The notes under the pieces: model-generated | The model's input: only the letters and a program-made list of their open reading frames with translations | What the model was told of the DNA's origin: nothing | Databases searched by the model: none | Position numbers and translations under genes: made by a program | Assembly: GCA_964471095.1 (NCBI GenBank) | Contig: CAYYFU010000001.1 | Location: 8,138 to 36,442 of the forward strand | From: an uncultured Pseudomonadota bacterium | Lineage (GTDB): Bacteria > UBA10199 > JACPAL01 | Reading direction: 5' to 3' | DNA length: 28,305 nucleotides | Part shown: one piece after another, positions 1 through 25,352 of the stretch | Position numbering within the stretch: the first letter of the stretch is position 1 | Layout: every line of letters starts with the position of its first letter

Positions 1-1187
1 AGGGTCCGGCAGAGATCCGGAGTGGAATCGCTATTTGCCTCTCCCGCGTCACATTCCTCATCTCCGGCCAGTTCTCCATCACCGCAGACTGAACAGAGAT
101 CCTCCTCCGCCACCGCTGGTGGTTTGCATTCGGCGGGCAATTCGGTCTCTTTCCACGGTGTCTCGCCAAATTCCCCCACCATGGTAAATCTGACAATCCG
201 GCAACTCCCCCACGGCTGTCCGACCGCCAGCTCCACGGAGCAGGAGGTATGGATGGAGCAGATTTCCGTCCCCGATTTTGGGGACTTTCCCTTGCCAGTA
301 CTGGCGGCCGGAACGAGGACCTTGGTCTCGCCAAAATAGGCAGGGTCGATGTGATAGACGCCATTCGCATCCGGAGAAATCGGGCCGGACGAGAGCTCCC
401 CATTGGGATTGGAGATCGTCACGCTGGCGGGATTCCCATCGATGGTCACGTCGAGGGTGAGGATTTTGCAGTACGGACATGAGGCGGGATCCAACGGTTC
501 CGGTTCGACGCATTCTTCCTCCGGCGGTTCCGGCGCGGGGGCACAATCTTCTCCTACGGCATCGCCATGCTTGAGGTGTTTGTGGAGGTCGACGGAGCTC
601 TCATCGACGCAAATGAATTGGACATTGGCCGGATTGCCGGGAGGGATATGGCAAATCGCAATCTTGTGGTCTTCACAGGGAAGGGTCTGGGGATGCTTTA
701 CGGATACGTCATCTCCGTCGTGGTGATCCTCATCGCTCGTCTCGCTTTTCTTCTCGGATCTCCTTGCCGTCCTCCCACTGAAGGTTAGCTCTCCCAGATC
801 GATCGGCGCTCCCTCCGACGCAATCTCGCGTACGGTCGAACCCTCCATCATCAGGACAGCCACCACCTCGTCTTCCTTCTCGAAGGTAATCACGCAGGAT
901 TCCCCGACCGGGACCTCGAGGCTAAAACTGCAACCTTCCTCCACCGGGGTCGAAAAGGTCTCACCATCGGGGACGGTGCAGGTCACCGTATCAGCCTCAC
1001 ACCCCTGCTCCTCGGAAGGGACAGCCCCTTGGATAATCCTCAGCGCCGCCGATGCGGTGGTGGTTGCTTCACCTTCCTCAATCACACCGGTTGGCGTCAC
1101 CTCATTCCGGTCCGACGAACCACCGCAACCTGACACCATCAGGACGATCGCAACGGACCAGACCATATTTCTTAAAATAATTGTCAT
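1..1187 (-). CDS. Cys-rich modular lipoprotein (3' end runs off window); ICHIPPGNP module and Myxococcus-type cysteine-rich (CGDG..EECD) repeat
   Basis: Hand translation of the minus strand from ATG 1187 is open to base 1 (absent from the ORF track). It reads MTIILRNMVWSVAIVLMVSG|C (lipobox, Cys21 at 1125-1127)...KIAICHIPPGNPANVQFICV...ICSIHTSCS...CGDGELAGDEECDAGEANSDSTPDLCRT. Alternative start at Met8. Confidence 0.85.
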   Translation of the reverse strand, partial: MTIILRNMVWSVAIVLMVSGCGGSSDRNEVTPTGVIEEGEATTTASAALRIIQGAVPSEEQGCEADTVTCTVPDGETFSTPVEEGCSFSLEVPVGESCVITFEKEDEVVAVLMMEGSTVREIASEGAPIDLGELTFSGRTARRSEKKSETSDEDHHDGDDVSVKHPQTLPCEDHKIAICHIPPGNPANVQFICVDESSVDLHKHLKHGDAVGEDCAPAPEPPEEECVEPEPLDPASCPYCKILTLDVTIDGNPASVTISNPNGELSSGPISPDANGVYHIDPAYFGETKVLVPAASTGKGKSPKSGTEICSIHTSCSVELAVGQPWGSCRIVRFTMVGEFGETPWKETELPAECKPPAVAEEDLCSVCGDGELAGDEECDAGEANSDSTPDLCRT

Positions 1188-1338
1188 TACGGCATCTTAT
1201 TGTGAGCAATAATCAAGCCAAACTAACTTTTTAGTGTTTTTATTTATTTATTAAATAAACACTAATTATTTCAATATATTATATTGTATATACTCTGAAA
1301 ACTTTTGGAAATAGATAGCGGAAATATGTTTAATATCA

Positions 1339-1374
1339 GGAAATATAATTCCGTTTTAGGAAATTATGTTCCTA
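1339..1374. promoter_or_regulatory. Tandem GGAA-N6-TTCC inverted repeats, candidate operator in AT-rich region upstream of the lipoprotein gene
   Basis: GGAAATATAATTCC (1339-1352) and TAGGAAATTATGTTCCTA (1357-1374), 20 bp apart; partial copies at 1307 and 1320. Confidence 0.35.
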
Positions 1375-1406
1375 ACTTATAAATTTGCCTCGATTTTTCG
1401 GAATGA

Positions 1407-2510
1407 TTAAAATCGGTAAACCAGCAGGGCACGAACCACCGGTTGAAAGAAATTTCCCGAACTGATCCGTCGATAGACCCCTGCAAATTCGCCCACCAGT
1501 GAGAGTCCGGAGCCGGTAATGAATTCATAACCGACCCCGGCCCCGCCGACCCAGGAAAACTGTGTCTCGGCCCGGCGCGTCGAGAAGCCGGCGACCTGCG
1601 TCCCGCCCCCGGAACGCGCGATCGAAGGACCAACCCCGCCAAAGAGATAGGCGTCCTCCATCCAGAAATAGGAAACATGGGGGACAAAATCAAAGAAGTT
1701 AAAAATGACATCGAACTGCTTGGTGAAACTCCATTCCCCGTTCAGCGATACCAACCATTGGTCCGTGAGGCCGTATCCGCCGCGCAGATCAAGACCGATC
1801 GCCGGCCGGCGGATCTCGTTGACAAAACCGGAAACCTGGGGACCGGCCGCGGCAAAGAAACCCTTTCTCGGCTTGGCGGGGGAGTTGAACGGCTCTCCGC
1901 TGGTGGTCCATTGCGGCGTCTCTTCCTCTTGCCCAAAGCTGACCATCGGAAAAAAGGAGACCAGGAGAAAAACAAGCAAGAGGATTTTTGGCATCATCGA
2001 TTTTAAGGTTCCTTCTTGAGCGGACTCGCAGTGACAATCTTTTTTATTCAAGTTCTCTCCGCACCGCGGGCAAATTCCCTTGCAAGTCTCCTGACACAGA
2101 TACCGAATCGGGATCGAAAGCAACAAAAACTCCCGGATGATATTCGCGAGATCGATCGTCTCTCCCTCGTAAAAGGAAAAGTTGAGATCCTCCTCCACCA
2201 GCTCCCGGTCATCGCCGGCCAGTTTCTCCGGCTCCTTCCAGGGGGCGAGGACCATTTCGACAGGAACCGAGACCTGCCGGGAAAAGGGCTCCAGACAGCG
2301 GTCGCAGGTGGGGTTCAACTCCAGATCGGCATGGCCGTCGATCGAGACATTGTCACAGGTCTTGAGGAGATGGAGGTTGATGACTGCCGTGCCGTTCCGA
2401 AAATCCTCGCCATAGACCTCCTGAACCACCTGCCGGTACCAGGGATCTTTGGCGGATTTCGCCGTCAGATCAAACCCTTCGGCCGGGATGTCAAGGAGCC
2501 GGAGCTTCAT
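1407..2510 (-). CDS. yceD: DUF177/YceD-family metal-binding protein in frame with a signal-peptide-bearing outer-membrane beta-barrel (the barrel probably also starts independently at 1997)
   Basis: N-terminal ~170 aa has YceD motifs (TCDRCLEPF, IDLANIIRE, LCQETCKGICPRCGENLNKKDCHC). It continues without a stop into MMPKILLLVFLLVSFFPMVSFG (signal peptide, ATG 1997), amphipathic beta-strands and a C-terminal LLVYRF. Confidence 0.8.
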   Translation of the reverse strand: MKLRLLDIPAEGFDLTAKSAKDPWYRQVVQEVYGEDFRNGTAVINLHLLKTCDNVSIDGHADLELNPTCDRCLEPFSRQVSVPVEMVLAPWKEPEKLAGDDRELVEEDLNFSFYEGETIDLANIIREFLLLSIPIRYLCQETCKGICPRCGENLNKKDCHCESAQEGTLKSMMPKILLLVFLLVSFFPMVSFGQEEETPQWTTSGEPFNSPAKPRKGFFAAAGPQVSGFVNEIRRPAIGLDLRGGYGLTDQWLVSLNGEWSFTKQFDVIFNFFDFVPHVSYFWMEDAYLFGGVGPSIARSGGGTQVAGFSTRRAETQFSWVGGAGVGYEFITGSGLSLVGEFAGVYRRISSGNFFQPVVRALLVYRF

Positions 2511-2516
2511 CTCTTC

Positions 2517-2545
2517 AACCTAACAAAGTCACTTGCCAAACTCAA
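2517..2545 (-). promoter_or_regulatory. Candidate sigma70 promoter giving a leaderless yceD transcript
   Basis: Minus strand TTGAGT-N17-TAGGTT-N6-ATG(2510); no Shine-Dalgarno. Confidence 0.4.
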
Positions 2546-2572
2546 CTCTCTTGAACTAGCCTGCGGGCCGCC

Positions 2573-2953
2573 ATGTTGAGGGCCTTGCTCAAATCAAAGA
2601 TCCACCGGGCGCGGGTCACCAAGGCCGACCTTCATTACGAGGGGAGCATCTCGATTGACGCCGCGCTGATGAGGGCGGCCGATCTGGTCACCCACGAGCA
2701 TGTCCATGTCTGGAACGTCACCAACGGAAGGCGGTTTGAGACCTATGTGATTCCGGCGCCACGCGGCTCCGGCCAGATCCAGATCAACGGGGCGGCGGCC
2801 CACCATGCCCGCAAGGGGGATCTGGTGATCATCGCCAGCTTCGCCCATCTGTCGAACACGAAGGCAATCCGGCATCGACCGCGGGTCGTTTTTGTCGACA
2901 CGAAGAACCGGATCGTCCGCATCGCCCGCCAGAGCGGGGCTGACAGCGCCTGA
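2573..2953 (+). CDS. panD: Aspartate 1-decarboxylase
   Basis: [18 protein letters not shown]|SISID self-cleavage site, [23 protein letters not shown]; 126 aa. Confidence 0.97.
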
Positions 2954-3027: not shown

Positions 3028-3735
3028 ATGGGACTGGGTCCAGACTTTATTTCCTGCCTGCAGAGGGAGTATCAGCCGCCGCCTTCCGGCGGGGGTGACC
3101 CCCTGTTCGCGGAGACAACGGCACGGGTCAAAACGCTGAAAGGTTGCAGTCGGTTCCTCCTGCCCGGGCAGAAGGAGGAGGCGGCTGTCTGGGTCTTTTC
3201 CGGCCTCTGGCGGGATGCCCTTGAGAAGAGGGGGGTAAAGAACCTCTCCCTCCCCGAACAATCGTCAGTCGCCGCGGATATCTACTCCGGGGTCCGCGAG
3301 ACCTATTTCCACTGGCACCTCTTCCCTGCCGGCGGGGCGATCCTCGGGGCGGTCCTTACGCGCCTGCCCAGTGAGGGGCATCCGCCTATGGTACTCGGTG
3401 CAGTGGTGGGGAGTCTGTTGGGGGGGATGTACGGAATGACCGTCGAGGTCCAGGCAAGGGGGGATCTCGCCCATCTGCTTTCTCAAGACCCGGAGCAAGA
3501 GAGCCGGGCGGTTGCCGATTTTCAGACCAACGAGGCCTTTTACTCCGGCCAGCTCTGCCTATCGGCCGTTATCTCCCTCGCCGGTCTCGCTGTCCTGATA
3601 ACACGCCGGGGGTCTCGGTTGAGCCGGAGGGTTGTCTCTTCTGTCGCCGCCTTATGGGTAGTGGCCCTTGCCCCGGAGGCCCTCATCGCAAGACGGAGGG
3701 GGAAACCAACCCAGTTGATGAACATGCTGGTCTAG
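3028..3735 (+). CDS. Hypothetical membrane protein (about 4 C-terminal hydrophobic segments)
   Basis: 235-aa ORF fills the panD-lipoprotein gap; Gly-rich TM-like stretches (AGGAILGAVL, MVLGAVVGSLLGGMYG, LSAVISLAGLAVLI, VVSSVAALWVVALA); preceded by the promoter motif. Confidence 0.7.
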   Translation: MGLGPDFISCLQREYQPPPSGGGDPLFAETTARVKTLKGCSRFLLPGQKEEAAVWVFSGLWRDALEKRGVKNLSLPEQSSVAADIYSGVRETYFHWHLFPAGGAILGAVLTRLPSEGHPPMVLGAVVGSLLGGMYGMTVEVQARGDLAHLLSQDPEQESRAVADFQTNEAFYSGQLCLSAVISLAGLAVLITRRGSRLSRRVVSSVAALWVVALAPEALIARRRGKPTQLMNMLV

Positions 3736-3965
3736 AAAAGGAGCTGCTTATGTCATTTTTTAGCGAAGTTCAGGGCCACAAAAGGACCGGTACTTACGAT
3801 CGAACGGCTGATCGGGTTGCGGTAACAGTCCCGTCGGGTGATTCCGGGACGGGAGGCTGCTGGCGACAGGGATCCGTCCCGTTAGCGGGAATCACCGGAG
3901 TTTTGGGCGTTTGGGTGCCAAGTCTGTTTCGGAGGGTCGTCAGACCACCGTTGGCGCTTGGGTCC

Positions 3966-4463
3966 ATGTTGAGGATGCCGGTGCCGCTCCGGGGCCCCTG
4001 GATGGTTGGCCTGACACTCTGCCTGGCGGCGATCGGATGCGGGCAGGAGGGTAATGGGACAGGTGGGGTTCGGGGTCTCGACGGCATTGATGGCGAGACC
4101 GGTCCCGCCGGTCCAACGGGACCTCGGGGTCCTGAGGGGCCTGAGGGACCGACCGGCCCGAGCGGGGCCGTAGGGGTTTTTGATCCTGCCCTGTGTCATC
4201 TCGTGGAGGAGCAGATTTCTCTGACTTCCACTCAGGCGGTCGAGGCCTCCTGCGCCGAGGATGAATTTCTCGTGAGTGGCGGGTGTGACAACCAAGGTAA
4301 CGGCAGCTGGCTGATTGACGTCTCCATCTTTACGGACAAACCGCTGCCCGGGGGAGGAGGGACGCTCCTCGGTGGGGCCTGGAGGTGTGGGATCTCGGGT
4401 TCAACAGGGGGGTCCGGAAGCCCAACGATCACCGCCTATGCCATCTGCTGCAACTCTCCTTGA
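3966..4463 (+). CDS. Collagen-like (Gly-X-Y) lipoprotein with small Cys-containing C-terminal domain; start uncertain (3750, 3966, 3975 or 4002)
   Basis: VGLTLCLAAIG|C lipobox (Cys 4038), 13 consecutive Gly-X-Y triplets (4056-4172), then ASCAEDEFLVSGGC...WRCG...ITAYAICC. An in-frame ATG at 3750 has a good AAGGAG Shine-Dalgarno. Confidence 0.8.
   Translation: MLRMPVPLRGPWMVGLTLCLAAIGCGQEGNGTGGVRGLDGIDGETGPAGPTGPRGPEGPEGPTGPSGAVGVFDPALCHLVEEQISLTSTQAVEASCAEDEFLVSGGCDNQGNGSWLIDVSIFTDKPLPGGGGTLLGGAWRCGISGSTGGSGSPTITAYAICCNSP
4056..4172 (+). repeat. Collagen triple-helix Gly-X-Y repeat (13 triplets)
   Basis: GTG GVR GLD GID GET GPA GPT GPR GPE GPE GPT GPS GAV. Confidence 0.9.
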
Positions 4464-4515
4464 CAATCCCAAGGTACGGGGATACGGCAGAATGGGGCAT
4501 TAGGGAGGAATTCCA

Positions 4516-5028
4516 ATGAAGACAATCGCAGCTTTCTTCCTCGTCATTTCCCAAGTTTCACTGATACCGGGCGGCCCCCTCTGGGCCTCAACCCCTTCTC
4601 TGTTGCAGGAGAGTCCGGTCGTCCAGCGCCTGTCCGAAGAGGAGATGGGGAACCTCTGGGGCGGGACCTATTCCTCCCAGCTCGACATCGAGAACCCGTA
4701 CCACGACAACTCCATCAACACGACCTCCACCTTTTACTACCGAGTCAGCTACCGGTCGGTCGACGGGGATTCCGGTCAGAATCTCCGCCTGCGCATCTGG
4801 CTGGATGATTACTTGGCCCGAGATGACGTCATGACCACCAACGGCAGCTGGGCCCTGAGTGGTGAGGTCTCCGGTAACTTTTCCGGGAACCTCGTGACAA
4901 GGGACCCGACCGCCTTTGTCGCCGAAATCGTGAAGGACTACGACGGCTCCACCGATACTTATTGCGGCGATTCCGCCACAGATCGTGTCATCCTGGCTCG
5001 GGAATCGATCCTCCTGCATCCCTACTAG
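4516..5028 (+). CDS. Secreted protein with Sec signal plus double-glycine leader peptide (putative C39 substrate)
   Basis: GGAGG Shine-Dalgarno; signal peptide MKTIAAFFLVISQVSLIPGGPLWA; LSEEEMGNLWGG at residues 39-50 (4630-4665) matches L(-12)S(-11)xxE(-8)L/M(-7)xxI/L(-4)xGG; ~120-aa beta-rich mature part. Confidence 0.85.
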   Translation: MKTIAAFFLVISQVSLIPGGPLWASTPSLLQESPVVQRLSEEEMGNLWGGTYSSQLDIENPYHDNSINTTSTFYYRVSYRSVDGDSGQNLRLRIWLDDYLARDDVMTTNGSWALSGEVSGNFSGNLVTRDPTAFVAEIVKDYDGSTDTYCGDSATDRVILARESILLHPY

Positions 5029-5037
5029 GAAAAGAGA

Positions 5038-7062
5038 ATGCAGTGGCTTGCCGCCTTTTTCTCGGGGGGGATGATCCTCCTCGCACTTCCGCCGTTTGAT
5101 TTAAATAGTCTGGCCTGGTTCGCCTTCGTCCCGGTGTTGATTGCCCTCCATCGGTGCCCTTCCCGCACCCAGGCTGTCTTTCTTTCCGTTCAAACGGCAC
5201 TGATCGCGCTCGGCGGAATTTTTTATAGCGTCTGGTTTTTTTCCAAAATCTTTACCCTGGGCGGCTGGTTGGGGCTCTCCCTCCTTTTTGGGGCGGTCGG
5301 CCTTCTTTACCACCGCGCCTACCGTAACCTCTATCCGACCCTCTGGACCCCCTGGCTGGCTCCCTCGCTGTGGGTTTTGATCGAATATCTCCTCACGAGT
5401 CCCACGGTGGCACTCCCGATTAACTTTGCCGTGGCCGGGACTGCGTATCCCCGTTTGATCCAGGTCGCCTCCGTGACCGGCATCTTCGGCGTCTCCTTCA
5501 TCTTAACCGCCGGCAGCGCATCGCTCGCCTACGGTTATGACCTGATTCGAGAGAAGCGATGGCGTCCCCTCGCTGTGCACACGGTGATCCTCGGTTTCCT
5601 CTCCCTCCTCATTTTTCTTTATGGGGGCACCCGTCTCCACCGGGTCGGCGACCGTCAAAAGGCCCTTTCCTTTGCGGCGCTCCAACCGCGCGTCCCGTCC
5701 GAGATCTATCGGTACCGCTGGTTGAGGCCCGAGATCCGCCAGGGGCTGACGAACCACCTCGACCGGCTGTCGCAGACGGCCCTCTCGCAGCCCGTTGACC
5801 TGTTGATCTGGCCGGAGGGAGGCAACGGTTATTTTAACCTCCGCATTCCGAGTCTGCGGGAAAAGATTCAGCGCCTGGGGCAAAAGGGTCGGGCCGACAT
5901 TCTCCTCTCCTCTGCCGATCTGGATCAGGAATTCAGGCGGTTCAATTCGATCTTTTCGATTTCAGCTGAGGGTCGCCTGCTGGGGAGATACGACAAGAAT
6001 TACCTGACGCCGATCGGCGAATCGCAGTTCACCGCAGGAACCGGAGGCAAGCTTCTGCCGACAAGATATGGACCTTTCGGCGCGATGATCTGTTTTGAAT
6101 CCTGCTTCCCGACTTATGCCCGCCATCTGGCCAACGAGGGGGCTCAATTCCTCTTCGTCTCCTCCTCGGATGCCCCCTTCCGACGGTCGGTCCTCCCCCT
6201 CCTCCACGCCCGCGTGGCCCAGTTCCGGGCGATTGAAACCGGCCGATTCCTGATCCGGGCTGCCAACACCGGCCCCTCCTTTGCGGTGGATCCGGCAGGG
6301 CGCATCACGACCCACTTGAATTTTTACGAGGAAGGTGTCCTGATGGGCGCGGTCGAGCCACGAAATGAGCGGACGCCCTACATGCGCTTTGGCGATTGGC
6401 TGGTCGTTGTTTCCCTCGTGTGGGTCGGCGGAGGGCTGTATCCGTTGAGAAAAGTGCCTCCTCCCGCCCTGTCCGCCGGAAGAGCCCCGTGGAGAGGTGT
6501 CGTTTGGCAGACGGCGGGCGCTTGCGGCATGGCAGTCCTGATGGCCGGTTCAAGCTCCTTGGCGGTCCATTATCAGACGCGGGAGACAACCGGGTCCTTC
6601 GCCAGCCTCTCGGAAAACGCCCTGAGGTCAGGGGAGCCGGTGACGGCGGTCTTCGAGCAAAGGAAGAGTCATACCTGCGGCCTCGAGTCCTTGGCCTATG
6701 TGATGAGTTACCTCGGTGAGGAGGTCTCGTCGGCGGCCCTCGAGAAAAAAGTTTCTCTCACCCCTCAGGGTCTCCCGATGAGCGAGTTGGCCCGGCTGGC
6801 CCGAGAGACCGGTTTCACCGCCGTGGGGGAGAAGCGGAACTACCGGGCCCTGATCGATGCACCCAAACCGCTGATCGCCCACATCCGGGACGATCACTAT
6901 GTCGTGATTGTCGAGAGCGATCGCAGGAGCGTCACGTTGTTCGATCCCGCAAGATCCCGGGAGGGGTTCCTTCGCGTCCCGGCGGCCGGTTTCCAAAAAT
7001 TCTGGCGGGGGAATCTCCTCAGGATCGGAACCAAGGAAATCCCAAAAGAGGTGTCCTCATGA
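5038..7062 (+). CDS. lnt: Apolipoprotein N-acyltransferase (Lnt)-like protein fused to a C-terminal C39 cysteine peptidase domain
   Basis: N-terminal TM bundle; nitrilase-fold triad WPE260G, YDK320NYLTPIGE, IC352FES, RAIETGRFLIRAANTG. After two more hydrophobic segments comes a C39 domain: QRKSHTC547G, DH620YVVI, LFD636PA. Confidence 0.9.
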   Translation: MQWLAAFFSGGMILLALPPFDLNSLAWFAFVPVLIALHRCPSRTQAVFLSVQTALIALGGIFYSVWFFSKIFTLGGWLGLSLLFGAVGLLYHRAYRNLYPTLWTPWLAPSLWVLIEYLLTSPTVALPINFAVAGTAYPRLIQVASVTGIFGVSFILTAGSASLAYGYDLIREKRWRPLAVHTVILGFLSLLIFLYGGTRLHRVGDRQKALSFAALQPRVPSEIYRYRWLRPEIRQGLTNHLDRLSQTALSQPVDLLIWPEGGNGYFNLRIPSLREKIQRLGQKGRADILLSSADLDQEFRRFNSIFSISAEGRLLGRYDKNYLTPIGESQFTAGTGGKLLPTRYGPFGAMICFESCFPTYARHLANEGAQFLFVSSSDAPFRRSVLPLLHARVAQFRAIETGRFLIRAANTGPSFAVDPAGRITTHLNFYEEGVLMGAVEPRNERTPYMRFGDWLVVVSLVWVGGGLYPLRKVPPPALSAGRAPWRGVVWQTAGACGMAVLMAGSSSLAVHYQTRETTGSFASLSENALRSGEPVTAVFEQRKSHTCGLESLAYVMSYLGEEVSSAALEKKVSLTPQGLPMSELARLARETGFTAVGEKRNYRALIDAPKPLIAHIRDDHYVVIVESDRRSVTLFDPARSREGFLRVPAAGFQKFWRGNLLRIGTKEIPKEVSS

Positions 7063-8618
7063 GAGTCCTGCTCTTTTCCATGCCGGACGGGACCCATCCG
7101 CTTTTCCCCCGGTTTTGCCGTCCGCCGAACCTGGGGCTCGCCTCGCTGGCCGGAAATCTGAAAGAGGAGGCGGACGTCACGGTGGCGGATCTGATCCTGA
7201 AACGGGAGAACGTCCCAGCCGCGATCCGTGAAGCCCTTGAAAAGGTCAGGCCCGACGTCGTCGGACTCTCCTGCATGACCTTTCAATATGATACGGCCAA
7301 ACGGGTTGCGGCAGAGATTCGTTCTTGGAATCCCGACGTTCCGATTGCCCTGGGAGGCTATCACCCCTCCATGACGTACCGTCAGATCGGGGAGCAGGAC
7401 ACACACCGCTTTGATTTTATCTGCCGCGGGGAGTCCGAGGTCACCCTCCGGGAGCTCGTTGTCACGCTCAAGCGGGGGGATCAGGATTTCGGCCCGATCC
7501 TGGGACTCTCTTGGAGACAGGGGGGATCTTTTCACCACAATCCGGAGCGTCCCATATCACCGCTCGAACAGATCATGCCGCCGGCTCGAGGTTCGAGACT
7601 GTGGGGAGGGTATCACATCCACGGTCGTCGCTTTGATCACGCGGAGTCCTCCCGCGGCTGCACGCTCCCCTGTAACTTTTGCAGCATCACGAAGATGTAC
7701 GGTCGGAATTTCAGACCGTATCCTCTGGACCGCATCCTCGACGATCTGACCGAGGCGGCACGCCTCGGGACGCAAGAAATCTTTTTTGTCGACGACAATA
7801 TCACCCTCAAACCAGGACACCTGGAACAACTCTGCGACGGGATCATCGAACGGCGCTTAAACCGGGTCCTGGAGTTCTCGACCCAGGCGTCCGTTGCCGG
7901 ACTCTACCGGGACATCCGGGTGGTCCAAAAGATGGCCGAGGCTGGATTTGTCCTGGTCTTCCTCGGGATTGAAAATGTCTCCAAGCGAAACCTGCTGAAT
8001 TACAAGAAGGGGAATATCGTGGAACTGGCCCGTGAGGTGATTCGGGAACTCCGGAAAAATAAAATCATGATCATGGGGGGGTTCGTCCTGGGGAGCCCCG
8101 ACGATTCGGAGGAGGATCTGCTGGACCAGTTTGCCTTCATGCGGAAGCAGGCCCTGGACTCCTACCTCGTTCAGATTCTGACGCCCTACCCGAATGTCCC
8201 CTTGACGGCCGATCTGGAACAACAGGGGATGGTCGTCAACCCAGACTTCCGGCGCTACTCGGGACTCTTTGCGAATGTCAGGACCAAGCACCTCTCTTCC
8301 TATGATCTTGATTTTTTAAGATGGAAACATTTCCCTTACTATCGGGATCTCCGCTGGTTCCTGAATGCGGTCGCTCCGCGGAGATTCACTTGGGGCGTCT
8401 TCAAGGAAACGCTCATCCGTTTTGGCGAGTGGCTCACCGAAAAATGCCGCAAGTTCCTCGTGTCCGAAGAATACGCTTTTCGAAAACAGATGAAAAAGCA
8501 GATTGCCTCTAATCTCTTTTTTGGGGAATCCCCCGAAGTGACCTGGCCCGACCGGGTTGCCCCTGCGGAAGCCCGCTTCCCCCAACTGGCCCTGGACAGC
8601 GTCCGGAAACTGTACTAG
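7059..8618 (+). CDS. Cobalamin(B12)-binding radical SAM enzyme
   Basis: N-terminal B12-binding domain (PNLGLASLA, PDVVGLSCMT, LGGYHPS), RGCTLPCNFC (CxxxCxxC at 7659-7682), FFVDDN, FLGIE, LTPYP; ATGA overlap with the lnt-C39 stop. Confidence 0.92.
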   Translation: MRVLLFSMPDGTHPLFPRFCRPPNLGLASLAGNLKEEADVTVADLILKRENVPAAIREALEKVRPDVVGLSCMTFQYDTAKRVAAEIRSWNPDVPIALGGYHPSMTYRQIGEQDTHRFDFICRGESEVTLRELVVTLKRGDQDFGPILGLSWRQGGSFHHNPERPISPLEQIMPPARGSRLWGGYHIHGRRFDHAESSRGCTLPCNFCSITKMYGRNFRPYPLDRILDDLTEAARLGTQEIFFVDDNITLKPGHLEQLCDGIIERRLNRVLEFSTQASVAGLYRDIRVVQKMAEAGFVLVFLGIENVSKRNLLNYKKGNIVELAREVIRELRKNKIMIMGGFVLGSPDDSEEDLLDQFAFMRKQALDSYLVQILTPYPNVPLTADLEQQGMVVNPDFRRYSGLFANVRTKHLSSYDLDFLRWKHFPYYRDLRWFLNAVAPRRFTWGVFKETLIRFGEWLTEKCRKFLVSEEYAFRKQMKKQIASNLFFGESPEVTWPDRVAPAEARFPQLALDSVRKLY

Positions 8619-19038: not shown

Positions 19039-22000
19039 TTATTTGACCTGCACCGGTGAGTCGTGCTGGACAATCAATTCGATCGCCTGGGTCTTCTGGT
19101 TCCCGGTCGTATCGGCTACCGTGACGACGATCGTGTAGGTCCGGCCGGCCCCGGCCCCCTCACGCTCGGCCCGCAGGTTAAAGGTCGCGAGGTAGCTGCC
19201 ATCCCCCTCGGGATCGTAGAAGTCGATCACCACCGGCGTGTCGTACCCGTCCGCCCCGTTCACATCACCGGTCGTCCGACCGTCGCCCAGTCCCGCGGCG
19301 TCATCCGGCTCACTGCTGGTGGCATATGCCTCGAGGATCGCGATCTCGGTCGGGGCGGCGAGGTCGTCGGTGAGCGAGAGGTTCAACGTGATCGGGACCA
19401 TCTTGTGGTTCGGCGGCCAGAGGTATCCCATCGGCGACGTGGTCAGGAGGACGGTCGGCGGCGTGGTATCGACCACCGGCTCCGGATCCTCGCTATGGAT
19501 CGTCCCGACCGCCGAGACCTCGGCACGGTTGGCGTCACGGATCACCAGCGTCATCGTCTCATCCGCCTCAAAGAGGTCGTCGTTGATAATCTCGACCCAG
19601 ATCGGGACCTCCGTCTCCCCGGCCCCGATCGCCGCATCCTCCGAAATCCCGTAATAGTCCTCACCGGCAATCGCCGTCCCGTCAACCGTCTCAACATGGA
19701 TCGGGATATCGTGGCTGCTCGGGATCGAGAGGGTCGCCGTGAAGGCGAGGGTGGCGCCCGGTTCATCCCCCTCGACCGGCGCCAGGGTCAAGACCGACGT
19801 GTCGTTGTCGGTGATCGTCACGGTCGCCTCCGGCCATGCGAGGGTCATCCCTTGCGGATCGGTGAACGAGAGCATGAATGCCTCGTCATCCTCATCCAAC
19901 TGATCGTCGTTAATTGGGAGCTGGATCGTCCAGAGAACCTCGCCCGGCGGGATCACGATCAGCCCCCCCATCGGGGTGTAGTCGTCGAGGGCGGTCGCCG
20001 TTTCATCGAGCTTTGTGTAGGCAAAGGAGACCTCATGGCTCTGCGGGCCGGAAAGCCCTGCCCTGAAGAGGGCGAAACCTGAATCTTCCTCTACTTGAAT
20101 CGCCCGCTCAAAGCTTAAAGCGGGGGGATCGTTGTCAAGGATCAGGACGGTTGCCTCGGCATCCCCCAGGGTTGCGTTGGTCGGGTTGGAGAGATGGACC
20201 AGGAAGGTCTCGTCGAGCTCGGGGACAAGGTTATCCACGAGGACCACGGAAATCGTCTTGGAGACCTCGCCGGGGACAAAGCTAAGGGACCCACTGGTGT
20301 CGGTAGAGGCATAATCGTAACCTGCGGCGGCGGTCCCATCCACCATTGCGTAATCGACCGTGATCTGTTTGCCGCTCGGGCCGGAGAGATTGACCGCCAC
20401 GGTCGCCGACACGCCTCCTTCCAACACGGCTGAATCCAGAACGGAGACGGTCGGGGGATTGTCGTCATCGGTGATCGTCGCAGTAGCGGTCGCGTCCCCG
20501 AGCAGGGCGTTTTGCGGCGCCGAGAGCGTCACGCTGAAGGTCTCGTCGTCCTCGTCCAGCGAATCGAACAGGATCGGGATCGAAACCGTCGCACTCGTGG
20601 CGCCGGCCGGGATGATCACGAACCCGCTGCTCGCCGTGTAGTCGTTCCCCGCTGTCGCCGTTCCGTCGGCGGTCGCATAGCTGACCTGCACGTCAAGGCT
20701 CGTCGACTGCGACAGCGTGACCGTAAAGACCGCCGTGTCGTCACCGCGACCTTCAATGATCGTCAGGTCGCCGATTGAGATGGTCGGGAGGACGATCACC
20801 TGATCGTTGTCGATGATGCTCCCGATCCCTAGTGCATCGGCGATCGTCGCCATCTGTGGCCCGAGGAGTTTCAGGTAAAAGAGCTCGGTGTTTTCAATAA
20901 GGCTGTCATCAAGGATCGCTACACTGACCGTCTTGGAGGTCTCGCCCGGCGCGAAGGTCAAGGTCCCGCTCACCGCGGTGTAATCCGAGCCGGCGGCGGC
21001 CGAATAATTCACGGTGGTGTAATTCACCTTCACGATAAAGCTCGATCCCCGGGAGAGGGTGACCGGGAAGAGGGCCGGACCGGCCCCTTCGGTGATCGAG
21101 GTGTCTCCCACAGCGAGCGTCGGCGGGGCATCGTTGTCGTTGATCGTCCCGGCGCCGATCCCGTCGGCCACCGAGGGACTCCCGGAGACGTAGGTCAGTT
21201 TCATCTGGTAGGTCTCGCTCGGTTCATCGGTTAGGTCGTCAATGATCGGGACCGGGATCTGCTTGACCGTCTCGCCCGCCGCAAAGGTCAGTGTGCCGTT
21301 CGTGGTGGCAAAGTCGCTCCCCGCCAGCGCCGTTCCGTTGGCCGTTGCATAGTTCAGTACCGCGGTGTCGGAGGAGGCGAGGTCCATTGTTACGGTGAAA
21401 TTAGCGTTCCCGGCCGACTCGAGCACCGCGACATCGTTGATCGAGAAGGAGGCGAGCAGGAACCGGGCGATCACCGCATCGCTGTTTCCGCTCGTATTCG
21501 TGCCATAACCGGTTGTGATGAGACGATTGTCGGAGGTGACCGCCATGTCGTTCATCCTCGCATTGCTGACCGGCAACGCCCGAACCTGGGCCCCGAAGAT
21601 CGGATCGAGCGAGCCGTTGGAAAGGTACCGTGCCATGGCGAAAGCGTAGGTGTTGGTCTGGGGATTGAGAACGTATCCGCCCAGCAGGATCTTCCCGTCC
21701 GGCTGGAGATCAGCGGCCGTCATCTCTCCTCCCCCGTAGTTGGCAAAGGAGGTGGTCACCTTGCCGGCCGTCCCGAAACTCGAGTCGAGCGCCCCTGATG
21801 CGAGATATCGGGCAATGGCAAAACGATCCCCGTACAAGGTCGCGAAGGAATCGCCGGCCGCCACAATCTTCCCATCTGGCTGTTGAAAACAGGAGTTTGC
21901 CGAATCATTCCCATTGGTGAGCGACGTCACCACGATGCCGTCCGTGTCAAAGGTGGCGTCGAGTGTCCCGTCGGAAAGGAGGCGGGTCAGCGCAAAGACG

Positions 22001-22752
22001 CCGATCAAGTGGCCCGTTGCCGGGTTAAGCGCCGCCGCCGTTCCACAGGCGACGATCTTCCCGTCCGATTGGATGAAGATATCATTCAAAAATTCGTCAT
22101 GATCGATCGTCTGATATAGCGATGCGGCAGAAGAGACATTGACCAAGACAACCCCATCGGTCCCGAAGGTGGTGTCCGTCGTCCCGTCGGCATTGACACG
22201 GGCGATCCCGAAGCGGTTGTCGTTGTCGATCGTGTGGGTGCCGGCGAGGAGCATCCCTCCATCTGCCTGAAGGACAACCCGCCGCGGGCCGATCGTCTCC
22301 AGGATGACAAACCCGCCGGTGCCGAAATCCGGATCGAGGGTCCCGTCCGGGAGGAAGCGGGCCAGAAAGGCATCGTTCGTGCCGTTGGCGTAGCCGACCG
22401 CGACGATCTTGCCGTCCGGCAACAGGGCGATGTCGTTCACAAATTCATTCTGTTGCAGGAGATCGGTCACCGCGATCCCGCCGGTGCCGAAGTCCGGATC
22501 GAGGGCCCCGTCCGGCAGATAACGGAGCAACATAATGTCCGATGTGGCACCGCCGGTCTGGCCCCCGACGATAAACCTTCCGTCCGGCTGTTCGATGACC
22601 GCCTTCGCGGCGTCGATCTGACCGGAGATGTCTGTGATCGTCTTGCCGAGCGTCCCAAAGGAGGGGTCAAAACCGCTCGGGGCGGCCGCGACTGAAAGAG
22701 GGAAGAGGAGAACGAAAAAGAGGCCAAACCAGATTGTGGGCCTGTTCATCAT
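19039..22752 (-). CDS. Large secreted protein: 7 delta-60-type beta-propeller repeats, 6 Calx-beta repeats and a C-terminal WPPNHKM domain (adhesin-like)
   Basis: Signal peptide MMNRPTIWFGLFFVLLFPLSVAAA; seven QPDGKI-like/LDPxFGxGG repeats; six Calx-beta units (Y.T.DGTA.AG.DY....G.L.F..GET.K.I.V.I.DD...E..ETF); GYLWPPNHKMV...LRAEREGAGAGRTYTI. Start moved from TTG 22809 to ATG 22752. Confidence 0.9.
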   Translation of the reverse strand: MMNRPTIWFGLFFVLLFPLSVAAAPSGFDPSFGTLGKTITDISGQIDAAKAVIEQPDGRFIVGGQTGGATSDIMLLRYLPDGALDPDFGTGGIAVTDLLQQNEFVNDIALLPDGKIVAVGYANGTNDAFLARFLPDGTLDPDFGTGGFVILETIGPRRVVLQADGGMLLAGTHTIDNDNRFGIARVNADGTTDTTFGTDGVVLVNVSSAASLYQTIDHDEFLNDIFIQSDGKIVACGTAAALNPATGHLIGVFALTRLLSDGTLDATFDTDGIVVTSLTNGNDSANSCFQQPDGKIVAAGDSFATLYGDRFAIARYLASGALDSSFGTAGKVTTSFANYGGGEMTAADLQPDGKILLGGYVLNPQTNTYAFAMARYLSNGSLDPIFGAQVRALPVSNARMNDMAVTSDNRLITTGYGTNTSGNSDAVIARFLLASFSINDVAVLESAGNANFTVTMDLASSDTAVLNYATANGTALAGSDFATTNGTLTFAAGETVKQIPVPIIDDLTDEPSETYQMKLTYVSGSPSVADGIGAGTINDNDAPPTLAVGDTSITEGAGPALFPVTLSRGSSFIVKVNYTTVNYSAAAGSDYTAVSGTLTFAPGETSKTVSVAILDDSLIENTELFYLKLLGPQMATIADALGIGSIIDNDQVIVLPTISIGDLTIIEGRGDDTAVFTVTLSQSTSLDVQVSYATADGTATAGNDYTASSGFVIIPAGATSATVSIPILFDSLDEDDETFSVTLSAPQNALLGDATATATITDDDNPPTVSVLDSAVLEGGVSATVAVNLSGPSGKQITVDYAMVDGTAAAGYDYASTDTSGSLSFVPGEVSKTISVVLVDNLVPELDETFLVHLSNPTNATLGDAEATVLILDNDPPALSFERAIQVEEDSGFALFRAGLSGPQSHEVSFAYTKLDETATALDDYTPMGGLIVIPPGEVLWTIQLPINDDQLDEDDEAFMLSFTDPQGMTLAWPEATVTITDNDTSVLTLAPVEGDEPGATLAFTATLSIPSSHDIPIHVETVDGTAIAGEDYYGISEDAAIGAGETEVPIWVEIINDDLFEADETMTLVIRDANRAEVSAVGTIHSEDPEPVVDTTPPTVLLTTSPMGYLWPPNHKMVPITLNLSLTDDLAAPTEIAILEAYATSSEPDDAAGLGDGRTTGDVNGADGYDTPVVIDFYDPEGDGSYLATFNLRAEREGAGAGRTYTIVVTVADTTGNQKTQAIELIVQHDSPVQVK

Positions 22753-22805
22753 TTTGGTTGTAGCTATCAGGAAGCAATTATCCGACCAATCCACGGGATA
22801 TCTGA

Positions 22806-22839
22806 TCAAAATGATTTTGAAATAGCATTAACTAGTTAA
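22806..22839. promoter_or_regulatory. Two adjacent palindromes in the divergent AT-rich intergenic region
   Basis: TCAAAAT-G-ATTTTGA (22806-22820) and TTAACTAGTTAA (22828-22839). Confidence 0.3.
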
Positions 22840-22996: not shown

Positions 22997-24232
22997 ATGA
23001 TCCCAAAGGCTCGAGTGGTGGCCACCCTCGCGAGGGAGGTCATGGGGGTGGTTCGCCGCAGTCCATCGCTAGCCGAGAAATTGGACTCGTTTTGCCTGGT
23101 TGGCGGACCTAAGGCAGGCGGGCTAACTGACCCTCGATGTTTTATGGTTCGACTGGGGTGGACCGGCCTTCCAAAACCCCCTCACGTGGGAACGGTTCTC
23201 CGGGCAATCCGGGCGAGAAAGGGGCTGACACTCCTTCAAATCGAACAGATCAGCGGCATCTCGCAAACGGTCCTCTCGCGCATCGAAAAGGGGAAGGTCC
23301 GTCCAACAGAGGAATCGGTCCTAAAGATCACGCAGGCGCTTTTTAACGACGGTCAAATCGCCCCCGGGGATCTTAAGGCCGTTTACACCCATTTGAATCC
23401 GGAGGTCCGCTCCCTCCGCTATTTCACCGAGACCGGCACTGCCGGCACCTTTTGGATCGATCTTCCGCCCGGCATCACCCTCGACGACATCATCCACCTT
23501 CATGTCAGCCTGTTCATCGAGCGGGCGATCGTCCGCAGGGGGCTCAAACGCCGTGATGTGGCCCGCCAACTCGGAATGCGATCTGAAACCTTCGAATCGC
23601 TGTTGAAGAGAGATCTCGGTCCGGTCCCCCTGGAGACCATCCAAAAACTCGCGGCAATCACCAAATTGCCGGAGAGCTTCCTGTATTTCGGCTACCACCG
23701 CGAGATGCGGTTTTTTCTTGAGATCGCAATCCGGGGGGCACGCGGTGGGACTTTGAGTCATCCCACACCGGCCGCTTTTCAGACCAAAGAGGTCCTCCGC
23801 CGCTTTCGCTCCCATTGCCGAACGCAGGGGGAAAGTGACTATCTGGAGCTGATCGAATCGGCTTCCCCGAGCGAACGGGACGCCGCTTTTTATTACCTCG
23901 ATCGGGGACACAACACCAACCTAAACCGAGTCTTTTACACCCTGAAGGTGCCGGCCCCCTTCTCCAGCATCGAGGAGATCCGGGCGATCGATCTTCGAGC
24001 CCGCCTCATCGAACGAAAGGGTCGCGAAAGTATGGACGCCTTTATGAAAAGGCACGGATTGGGTCGAAAGGTCTTCGAATCTACCTTTCCGCTGGGGGCG
24101 GCCGAACATGTCCTGCCGCGGATCCCAAAATTAAAGAGTCTGGCAAGGGCGGCCGACCTGCCGGAACCGGTTGCACTTCTCTGGTTCTGGCCGCATCTGG
24201 CCAAGAAGGTTGAGGTCCTGTTCCGCTGCTAG
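22997..24232 (+). CDS. Multi-XRE-HTH domain protein (two clear and one degenerate HTH)
   Basis: VGTVLRAIRARKGLTLLQIEQISGISQTVLSRIEKG; RRGLKRRDVARQLGM; RESMDAFMKRHGLG...KLKSLARAADLP; linker GTFWIDLPPG shared with neighbours. Confidence 0.8.
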   Translation: MIPKARVVATLAREVMGVVRRSPSLAEKLDSFCLVGGPKAGGLTDPRCFMVRLGWTGLPKPPHVGTVLRAIRARKGLTLLQIEQISGISQTVLSRIEKGKVRPTEESVLKITQALFNDGQIAPGDLKAVYTHLNPEVRSLRYFTETGTAGTFWIDLPPGITLDDIIHLHVSLFIERAIVRRGLKRRDVARQLGMRSETFESLLKRDLGPVPLETIQKLAAITKLPESFLYFGYHREMRFFLEIAIRGARGGTLSHPTPAAFQTKEVLRRFRSHCRTQGESDYLELIESASPSERDAAFYYLDRGHNTNLNRVFYTLKVPAPFSSIEEIRAIDLRARLIERKGRESMDAFMKRHGLGRKVFESTFPLGAAEHVLPRIPKLKSLARAADLPEPVALLWFWPHLAKKVEVLFRC

Positions 24233-24246
24233 GCCAAACTTTTCCC

Positions 24247-24273
24247 GCAACCTTGTCGGACAACTCACGATAA
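24247..24273 (+). promoter_or_regulatory. Sigma28-like promoter copy 5
   Basis: GCAACCTT-N11-CACGATAA-N10-ATG(24284); lies within AAACTTTTCCCGCAACCTT (24236-24254), identical to 25342-25360. Confidence 0.65.
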
Positions 24274-24283
24274 CCGGCTTGTC

Positions 24284-25339
24284 ATGGTCCTTGGCCCGCC
24301 CATTTCGTCCCGGCCGATCACTTGGGAATCCTCTCCATCAGCCGACCAGCCGCCCGATTCTCCCGCCTCGCGCCTCTTCAAGACGACCTTCAGCATTGCC
24401 GGGCTCACTCTAGCTGTCGTTCTGGCGGGGAAGGGGGCGGGCGGATCAACGCTGGCACAATTCGAGAAGCTCCTTCCGAAACTGATTAACGGCATCGTCG
24501 CGGGAGGCAAAGCGGTCAAAATTCAGATCGGATTGCTTCTGTTTTACGTCCGAAAGGACCCGGCGTTTCAGGACCATGCGCGTGAGGTTGTCTTTGGGCG
24601 ATGGAGAGGGGCTCCCGCCAATAGCGAGCTGCGGGTGGTGTTGGACGACCTCCTGAAATTGGTCAAAAATCCCCCTCCGGAGAAGAGGCTTAGGGTGGTT
24701 AAGAAGGCCGTTGTCCGGCAACGACACAGGCCGATCGATGGACCGCTCGCAGAGGTTGCCCGGTTGCTGATCGCCAAGCGGGAATCACTCAGGTTGTCCC
24801 AACGAGTCGTCGCCACAGGGGCCGGTGTCGACCGTTCCTATTACTGTCGATTGGAGGGGGGGAAGGCATGTCTGCCCCACTCTCTGCTGAGGGTATTGCG
24901 CTTTTTCAACGAGCGCGCCCCCTACACCGACGCTGAACTGATCGCGATCTACCGGGCCTGGCGGCCAACGGAGATCAAGACCGAATGGTTCGATCTGGAG
25001 CGGGGAATCTTTTGGGTCAAACTTCCGCCCGGAATGACCCTCGAGCAGGCGATCGCCCTCTCCTTAAGTCAGTTCGCGCAACAACTTCTGCGCGACAAGG
25101 GGCTCTTGCAGGCAGCGATCGCCGAGGCGATCGGGCGCACCAGCGGCTCGTCGACCGACCTCTTCTCCGGACTCACCCATCACCTCAAGTTAGAACAATT
25201 GGAGGCCTTGGCGCGACTCGGCCGGGTTGACGGCTCCCTCGCGTACCTCGCCGGCCGCCCCTATCTCGCTGATTTTTGGACGATCGGCATCCGGAGGACC
25301 AACCGGAGTTTCCGCCGACCGGTCGCCGCCCGGTTCTGA
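24284..25339 (+). CDS. Double XRE-HTH protein, paralog of the upstream gene, with Ser/Pro-rich N-terminus and a hydrophobic segment
   Basis: LIAKRESLRLSQRVVATGAGVDRSYYCRLEGG; GIFWVKLPPGMTL; DKGLLQAAIAEAIG...LEQLEALARL. Confidence 0.78.
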   Translation: MVLGPPISSRPITWESSPSADQPPDSPASRLFKTTFSIAGLTLAVVLAGKGAGGSTLAQFEKLLPKLINGIVAGGKAVKIQIGLLLFYVRKDPAFQDHAREVVFGRWRGAPANSELRVVLDDLLKLVKNPPPEKRLRVVKKAVVRQRHRPIDGPLAEVARLLIAKRESLRLSQRVVATGAGVDRSYYCRLEGGKACLPHSLLRVLRFFNERAPYTDAELIAIYRAWRPTEIKTEWFDLERGIFWVKLPPGMTLEQAIALSLSQFAQQLLRDKGLLQAAIAEAIGRTSGSSTDLFSGLTHHLKLEQLEALARLGRVDGSLAYLAGRPYLADFWTIGIRRTNRSFRRPVAARF

Positions 25340-25352
25340 CAAAACTTTTCCC

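Follow-up and report, generated by a model that had tools for sequence, protein, structure and literature searches.

The sequence of this locus points to an undescribed route by which exported proteins are trimmed and probably lipid-anchored. The window (the whole stretch of DNA that was analyzed, 28,305 nucleotides) encodes a 170-residue exported protein, here called the target, with a double-glycine (GG)-type leader behind its Sec signal. The gene immediately downstream encodes a fusion of Lnt to a C39 peptidase domain. The favored reading is that the target is a client of a two-enzyme maturation machine encoded by this next gene. Taken as a whole, the three-step statement of Sec export, cleavage by C39, and acylation by Lnt is one that we judge rather probable. 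The features on which this reading is built are listed here.

4503..4508 (+): Shine-Dalgarno-like GGGAGG, read directly from the sequence, 7 nt ahead of the target ATG
4516..5028 (+): target ORF, 170 aa, from the ORF call and its translation
4516..4587 (+): Sec-type signal peptide MKTIAAFFLVISQVSLIPGGPLWA, aa 1-24, with n, h, and c regions by inspection
4588..4629 (+): spacer STPSLLQESPVVQR, 14 aa (aa 25-38), the N-terminal portion of the propeptide
4630..4665 (+): double-glycine-type leader LSEEEMGNLWGG, aa 39-50, with predicted cleavage after G50
4666..5028 (+): mature domain, aa 51-170 (120 aa), beginning TYSSQLDIENP, a predicted beta-sandwich, plus stop codon
5038..7062 (+): Lnt-C39 fusion ORF, 674 aa, with LNT_N, CN_hydrolase, and C-terminal Peptidase_C39 (Pfam)
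5038..6453 (+): Lnt part, aa 1-472, with membrane domain, periplasmic nitrilase-like domain, and H8-equivalent helix (Pfam LNT_N and CN_hydrolase)
6091..6093 (+): codon of C352, which with E260 and K320 makes up the Lnt catalytic residues
6490..6576 (+): extra transmembrane helix, aa 485-513, after a K/R-rich cytoplasmic loop (AlphaFold2; hydrophobic segments in homologs)
6601..7029 (+): C39 double-glycine peptidase domain, aa 522-664, predicted to be periplasmic (Pfam PF03412, 4.5e-20)
6676..6678 (+): codon of C547, one of the C39 residues Q541, C547, H620, and D636
7059..8618 (+): B12-binding radical SAM gene (Pfam B12-binding and Radical_SAM), with a 4-nt overlap with the Lnt-C39 stop codon

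The translation of 4516..5028 agrees exactly with the original prediction, which had described a Sec signal, a 14-aa spacer, and a GG leader stacked one behind the other, the signal here being assessed by inspection and simple hydropathy rules. Its n region is MK, its uncharged h region is TIAAFFLVISQVSLI, and its c region, PGGPLWA, combines a PGGP helix breaker with L-W-A at -3 to -1, placing Leu at -3. The 24 related proteins that were tabulated share this layout, with clearer -3/-1 sites (VFA/VYA/ANA) than in the target, in which signal peptidase I probably cuts after L-W-A24. A lipobox ([LVI][ASTVI][GAS]C with Cys at +1) is absent from the target, and aa 1-149 lack cysteine altogether. One cysteine, C150, sits in a D-x-Y-C-[GE]-D motif (window 4957..4974, aa 148-153) that is shared with the homolog P0122 and missing, as far as the cysteine is concerned, from the relatives in locus L008. 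Pfam and NCBIfam scans of the target gave no family match, and a promoter/terminator scan was uninformative. The region is present only in DNA runs from groundwater metagenomes, and all six window proteins that were looked up are singletons at 90% identity. Directly upstream of the target, a collagen-repeat (G-x-y) protein is encoded at window 3966..4463 (+), inside ORF 3654..4463; it has a probable lipoprotein signal (LAAIGC), a cysteine-rich C-terminal domain, and no GG leader.

Is the motif at aa 39-50 a true leader? Its residues are L-12, S-11, E-8, M-7, L-4, G-2, and G-1, which satisfy the GG-leader consensus (L-12, S/T-11, E-8, L/M-7, I/L/V-4, G-2, G/A/S-1), so that the earlier claim of a match at -12, -11, -8, -7, -4, and GG is borne out for LSEEEMGNLWGG. 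When the window is translated in six frames (49,350 residues), the strict pattern L[ST]..E[LM]..[ILV].GG appears a single time, against an expectation of 0.0033 per window (mean of residue shuffles). When a leader model trained without the target or P0122 was applied to 717 window segments, the target came out on top, with an E value of 0.18 that is not significant alone. The leader is not at the extreme N terminus, being preceded by the 24-aa signal peptide and the 14-aa spacer; a cognate C39 peptidase is nearby, as a PF03412 domain in the next gene downstream. Together, the sequence features support a genuine double-glycine-type leader behind a Sec signal, and cleavage after the GG is predicted to make T51 the new N terminus.

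The target stop codon is followed after 9 nt by the Lnt-C39 gene, and this gene overlaps the radical SAM gene by 4 nt. The three look like one operon, the membership of the radical SAM gene being possible. The Lnt part of the fusion scores 178.9 bits against TIGR00546 (NCBIfam lnt; cutoff, 132.9), and besides passing this model it has the eight-helix membrane domain, the nitrilase-like domain, and the E-K-C triad of the class. The N-terminal part of the fusion aligns with Lnt structures. A profile of the C-terminal part, compared with the PDB, finds the double-glycine proteases LahT150 (7e-18), PCAT1, and ComA as closest, with E values from 7e-18 to 3e-11. The AlphaFold2 model of the fusion (pLDDT, 84; pTM, 0.86) superposes over its first ~500 residues on full-length Lnt structures, with target-normalized TM scores of 0.74 to 0.81. 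A homolog search recovered 14 full-length Lnt-C39 fusions with 31 to 39% identity. In their alignment, E260, K320, and C352, the accessory residues E328 and E354, and the C39 residues Q541, H620, and D636 are invariant (14/14), and C547 is conserved in 13/14. A scan of eight ORFs, fusion-flanking and other large ones in the window, revealed no ABC-transporter domain. A radical SAM gene lies directly downstream of Lnt-C39 in four loci (window 7059..8618 [+], L008 4418..5737, L012 3273..4364, and L022 1167..2048), and the copies of the last three are close to one another and only ~23% identical to that of the window. Its product may modify the client ahead of export or take part in lipid chemistry.

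On which side of the membrane would the C39 domain work? Lnt has eight membrane helices, with both termini in the cytoplasm and the catalytic domain in the periplasm between H7 and H8; H8 brings the chain back to the cytoplasm (PMC5500888). In the AlphaFold2 model of the fusion, two helices lie between the domains, at 447-472 (the H8 equivalent) and 485-513, and the homologs analyzed have two hydrophobic segments with a K/R-rich loop between them. Because one extra membrane helix follows the H8 equivalent, because the Lnt termini are cytoplasmic, and because the loop between the helices is K/R rich, the C39 domain is expected in the periplasm, where the Lnt active site also lies. Such a topology would remove the contradiction between a cytoplasmic GG cut and a Sec signal. 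A cytoplasmic C39 domain was considered and rejected, since a GG cut there would strip the Sec signal from the cargo and no transporter was found among the nearby ORFs scanned. Both the pairing of the leader with C39 and the topology of C39 are, on comparative grounds, well supported.

Further evidence comes from recurrence. The C-terminal profile was run against species-representative genomes and metagenome contigs and, with contig look-ups added, yielded 29 distinct Lnt-C39 loci from Gammaproteobacteria (including Thioalkalispiraceae metagenome-assembled genomes [MAGs]), a Desulfocapsa MAG (L008), a delta-proteobacterial MAG (L015), and unassigned metagenome contigs; the fusion is thus a rare family. 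At least one neighboring gene encoding a signal peptide, a spacer of 3 to 26 aa, and a double-glycine-type leader is found in 18/29 loci, usually immediately upstream of Lnt-C39 and in three loci immediately downstream. In nine of the 11 loci with no such client, the sequence breaks off within the Lnt-C39 gene or ≤0.8 kb upstream of it. When only loci with at least 1.5 kb on both flanks are counted, 11/13 have a client, the two well-flanked loci with none nearby being L015 and L032. Under the leader model, the scores of real leaders are 18.8 bits or higher, whereas in the control loci (87 kb, with other C39 proteins and Lnt-CPBP fusions) no score exceeds 4.6 bits.

There are 26 client proteins, with at least five unrelated mature domains and cargo of 86 to 720 residues that consists of folded proteins. 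The consensus of the 24 tabulated leaders is L(-12) [TS](-11) D(-10) x [EA](-8) M(-7) x x [IA](-4) V(-3) G(-2) [GA](-1), and the residue at +1 after the cut is mostly G, T, A, or S, with E or N in a few members. The mature types are (i) the target-like beta-sandwich, in the window, P0122, and L008; (ii) a ~95-aa domain, standing alone or at the N terminus of DUF1800 proteins; (iii) cysteine-rich proteins of 320 to 405 aa; (iv) a zincin-like 385-aa protein; and (v) a 146-aa protein. Pfam found no family match in the clients scanned, except for weak, subthreshold metallopeptidase matches in L039. The signal peptide, GG leader, and ~95-aa N-terminal domain of the small clients are also present in the DUF1800 clients (L002 872..3238, L004 1412..3724, L011 4053..6350, L013 4058..6361, L033 50..2347, and L034 56..2380), each of which is followed by a DUF1501 partner, an arrangement that links both of these uncharacterized families to the Lnt-C39 system. 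Another recurrent neighbor, just upstream of Lnt-C39 or of the clients (L002 5120..5827, L004 119..763, L008 1512..2174, L009 3..596, L010 2252..2959, L012 3..296, L019 115..750, and L024 121..729) but absent from the window, is a gene for a membrane-anchored peptidyl-prolyl isomerase of the cyclophilin type; its product may be a folding helper for the system. In L037, the Lnt part (203..1645) and the part with the transmembrane helix and C39 (1626..2240) are two overlapping ORFs, through a natural split or a frameshift, and a protein with signal peptide and leader follows at 2333..2773.

In a neighbor-joining tree of 118 Lnt homologs, built without bootstrap, the Lnt domains from the fusions group in a single clade, with 49% identity within the clade and 33% to others. 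Tandem Lnt-C39 copies occur in two loci, and the loci are accessory in character. The single clade, the tandem copies, and the accessory loci argue that the fusion Lnt is a specialized paralog and not a housekeeping enzyme to which C39 was added as decoration. A separate Lnt clade of about 31 proteins of 620 to 714 aa (a subset of P0017-P0056) has a weak C-terminal Rce1/CPBP-like protease domain in the eight members checked, and the two genes whose surroundings were examined (L043 5001..7055 and L044 5001..6941) lie in a secA-lnt-prfB housekeeping context with no leader-bearing neighbors. Given this context, Lnt-CPBP was rejected as a parallel protease-Lnt system and served as a negative control only.

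What is the target itself? The original prediction of a beta-rich mature domain of ~120 aa is matched by the AlphaFold2 model, in which aa 51-170 are all-beta, at a low confidence (pLDDT, 55) obtained from a four-sequence alignment. The model has 7 beta strands over aa 56-169, a disordered N terminus, and a short helix at leader aa 41-47. Foldseek gave only weak, nonsignificant matches to beta-sandwich, CBM/Ig-like folds, and an Ig/CBM-like sandwich is the probable fold. A word-indexed homolog search found the target itself only, and in an exhaustive search, 1.8 billion representatives yielded a single real homolog (P0122, 31% identity) and a single repeat protein (P0123), a membrane-anchored surface protein with repeats of a target-like domain. 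Other relatives are P0124 and P0125, together with the repeats within P0123. A profile built from four target-family sequences found no additional homologs, the family having four members only, and a Pfam scan of P0122, P0124, and P0125 had no matches.

P0122, the sole clear homolog, has a signal peptide and the leader LTFSEMIKLVGG at the position equivalent to that of the target; it lies on a 1.7-kb contig with no adjoining Lnt-C39 gene. With 24 more proteins of this design encoded beside Lnt-C39 genes, the leader proves to be conserved, which the original prediction had made a check on itself. In L008, the genes for P0125 (232..783) and P0124 (835..1320) are adjacent and encode paralogous beta-sandwich proteins distantly related to the target. 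One of the pair has a signal peptide and GG-type leader; its neighbor lacks a leader and carries instead a V-V-G-C lipobox-like signal, an ambiguous call given the A-G-A signal peptidase I site that comes after it. The pair hints that target-type proteins may be anchored in the membrane by either route, leader or lipobox.

Other features of the window are worth recording. At 1407..2510 (-), no stop codon separates a YceD-domain ORF from a second protein in the same frame, which has a separate signal peptide (MMPKILLLVF..., from 1997) and an outer-membrane-protein-like C terminus (...LLVYRF); this is probably two genes, or a read-through. Four consecutive large ORFs of 411, 351, 577, and 397 aa at 22997..28205 (+) look like a tandem family, with an XRE-type helix-turn-helix in the first two and no family match in the other two. 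The product of the ORF at 19039..22809 (-) is a secreted protein of 1256 aa in which six Calx-beta domains are combined with DUF5122 beta-propeller repeats; its signal peptide is ordinary, and it lacks a GG leader.

How might the pieces work together? In the proposed mechanism, the signal peptide would take the target precursor through Sec, and signal peptidase I would cut after L-W-A24. The remaining 26-aa propeptide would then offer its GG leader to the periplasm-facing C39 domain of Lnt-C39, and a cut after G49-G50 would leave T51 as the new N terminus. Finally, the Lnt domain, with its active site at the periplasmic membrane surface, would move a phospholipid-derived acyl chain onto the new alpha-amino group, giving a lipobox-independent, N-terminally lipidated envelope protein. 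The leader would be a sorting tag that marks otherwise unrelated exported proteins for Lnt-C39. Very probably, the propeptide is removed in the periplasm by the fused C39 domain; this part of the original prediction is strengthened by the adjacent C39 domain, its topology, the P0122 leader, and the further 24 proteins of the same design. The coupled acylation of the new N terminus by Lnt is more evenly balanced. It is proposed on the basis of the fusion, the intact catalytic residues, and the AatD/CexE precedent, and the hand-over is plausible because C39 yields a free alpha-amine and the fused enzyme acylates protein alpha-amines at the periplasmic membrane surface. Lipidation, to which the original prediction gave no thought, nevertheless looks more likely than the “activation or assembly switch” that it put forward. 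The most general version, in which Lnt-C39 is a sorting and lipidation pathway with a GG tag behind a Sec signal, periplasmic cleavage, and immediate N-acylation of a noncysteine N terminus, is advanced tentatively, as a little short of an even call.

The Lnt-C39 system would work like a hybrid of three known arrangements, the PCAT/C39 leader-peptidase pair, the Lsp-to-Lnt hand-over, and AatD/CexE, while being a member of none. With PCAT1, LahT, and ComA, it shares the leader consensus at -12, -11, -8, -7, -4, -2, and -1 and a cognate C39 domain with Q/C/H/D next door. However, classical leaders lie at the extreme N terminus and are cut in the cytoplasm in a process coupled to ABC export, whereas here the leader comes after a Sec signal, the C39 domain is fused to Lnt rather than to an ABC transporter and is predicted to be periplasmic, and the cargo consists of folded proteins of 86 to 720 residues instead of short peptides. 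From the Lgt-Lsp-Lnt pathway come the Lnt fold, catalytic triad, and topology, as well as the logic by which a protease exposes an amine that Lnt then acylates. The differences are that here there is no lipobox cysteine and no diacylglyceryl step and that the exposing protease would be an Lnt-fused C39 cysteine peptidase in place of the aspartyl peptidase Lsp.

A direct precedent for the acylation step is AatD, an Lnt homolog of enteric E. coli that N-palmitoylates CexE/Aap on its N-terminal glycine once this protein has passed through Sec and been cut by signal peptidase I, with a requirement for glycine at +1 (PMC7943197). Both cases feature a Sec-exported protein with no lipobox, an Lnt homolog that acts (here, by proposal) on a noncysteine N-terminal amine in the periplasm, and a prevalence of small residues (G/S/T/A) at the first positions past the cut. 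In the AatD system, though, signal peptidase I exposes the N terminus directly, with neither a propeptide nor C39, whereas the target has a propeptide and Thr51. AatD also stands as a protein in its own right and works with the AatPABC exporter, a kind of transporter not found in the window ORFs scanned, and its acylation is proven, while that by Lnt-C39 is proposed. FapD, the stand-alone periplasmic C39 peptidase of Pseudomonas Fap amyloid operons, whose Fap proteins have no canonical leader (PMC5557850), resembles the system in that a C39 peptidase acts (here, as predicted) in the periplasm on Sec-exported proteins. It differs in that the client here has a canonical leader and the peptidase is membrane tethered through Lnt, and no Fap genes are present in the window. 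What stands of the original interpretation is therefore a GG leader behind a Sec signal with a peptidase most likely outside the cytoplasm; a stand-alone, FapD-like peptidase does not, as the enzyme is an Lnt fusion. Neither an Lnt-C39 fusion nor the design of Sec signal plus GG leader is described in the literature searched (full text), which is no proof of novelty.

Could the target be an ordinary secreted protein with a chance GG-like motif and no tie to the downstream gene? The motif spans few residues, only four proteins make up the target family, and the independent leader model gives an E value of just 0.18, but a strict motif is expected only 0.003 times per window, the arrangement recurs in 18 independent loci beside the same rare fusion with unrelated mature domains, and the control loci are empty, all of which makes coincidence very hard to credit. 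A more serious contender is that the periplasmic C39 domain does nothing more than remove the propeptide, for maturation, activation, or release, with Lnt as an anchor or an ordinary lipoprotein enzyme and no lipidation of the client. The Lnt domain does score as an ordinary Lnt and could be the cell's housekeeping enzyme. Moreover, AatD needs Gly at +1, a position occupied by Thr in the target and by E or N in a few family members, and FapD shows that a periplasmic C39 peptidase can work without any acyltransferase (PMC5557850). Set against this, the fusion unites on the same membrane side two enzymes that act on N termini, one yielding the type of substrate that the other uses; neither the Lnt triad nor the accessory residues vary; and the fusions form their own Lnt clade, with tandem duplicates and accessory contexts, while Lnt-CPBP sits in secA-lnt-prfB. 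Cleavage with no lipidation is accordingly the leading alternative, though we regard it as unlikely.

The remaining variant concerns the first cut. The hydrophobic segment might escape signal peptidase I and tether the precursor as a signal anchor, in which case C39 would remove the signal, in an Lsp-like role, before acylation. Leu at -3 is less favored at signal peptidase I sites, and the target has it (L-W-A); L001 has a poor obvious -3/-1 site, and in some members the leader begins just 3 to 8 residues past the hydrophobic core. A membrane-tethered substrate would also suit a membrane enzyme. In most of the 26 proteins, however, the sites are good and A-x-A-like (VFA, VYA, ANA, LAS), with a spacer of 8 to 26 residues behind them, and the substrate of AatD is soluble in the periplasm, so that an uncut signal seems improbable. 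The preferred reading thus remains Sec export with signal peptidase I cleavage, GG cleavage by the periplasmic C39 domain, and acylation by Lnt.

Double-glycine leaders are regarded as cytoplasmic export-and-cleavage tags for ABC transporters. Lipoprotein acylation is regarded as needing a lipobox cysteine, AatD being the single exception known to us. The window locus and its roughly 28 relatives suggest that both systems have been joined in one membrane enzyme. If this is true, GG-leader recognition has shifted to the periplasm, possibly giving rise to lipobox-independent lipoproteins, a second class of lipoprotein in several bacterial phyla whose clients so far include small beta-sandwich proteins, DUF1800 enzymes, cysteine-rich proteins, and a zincin-like protease. 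Confirmation would add a new sorting signal that current genome annotation overlooks, a first mechanistic handle on the DUF1800/DUF1501 systems, and a compact pair of tag and enzyme for the directed N-terminal lipidation of exported proteins.
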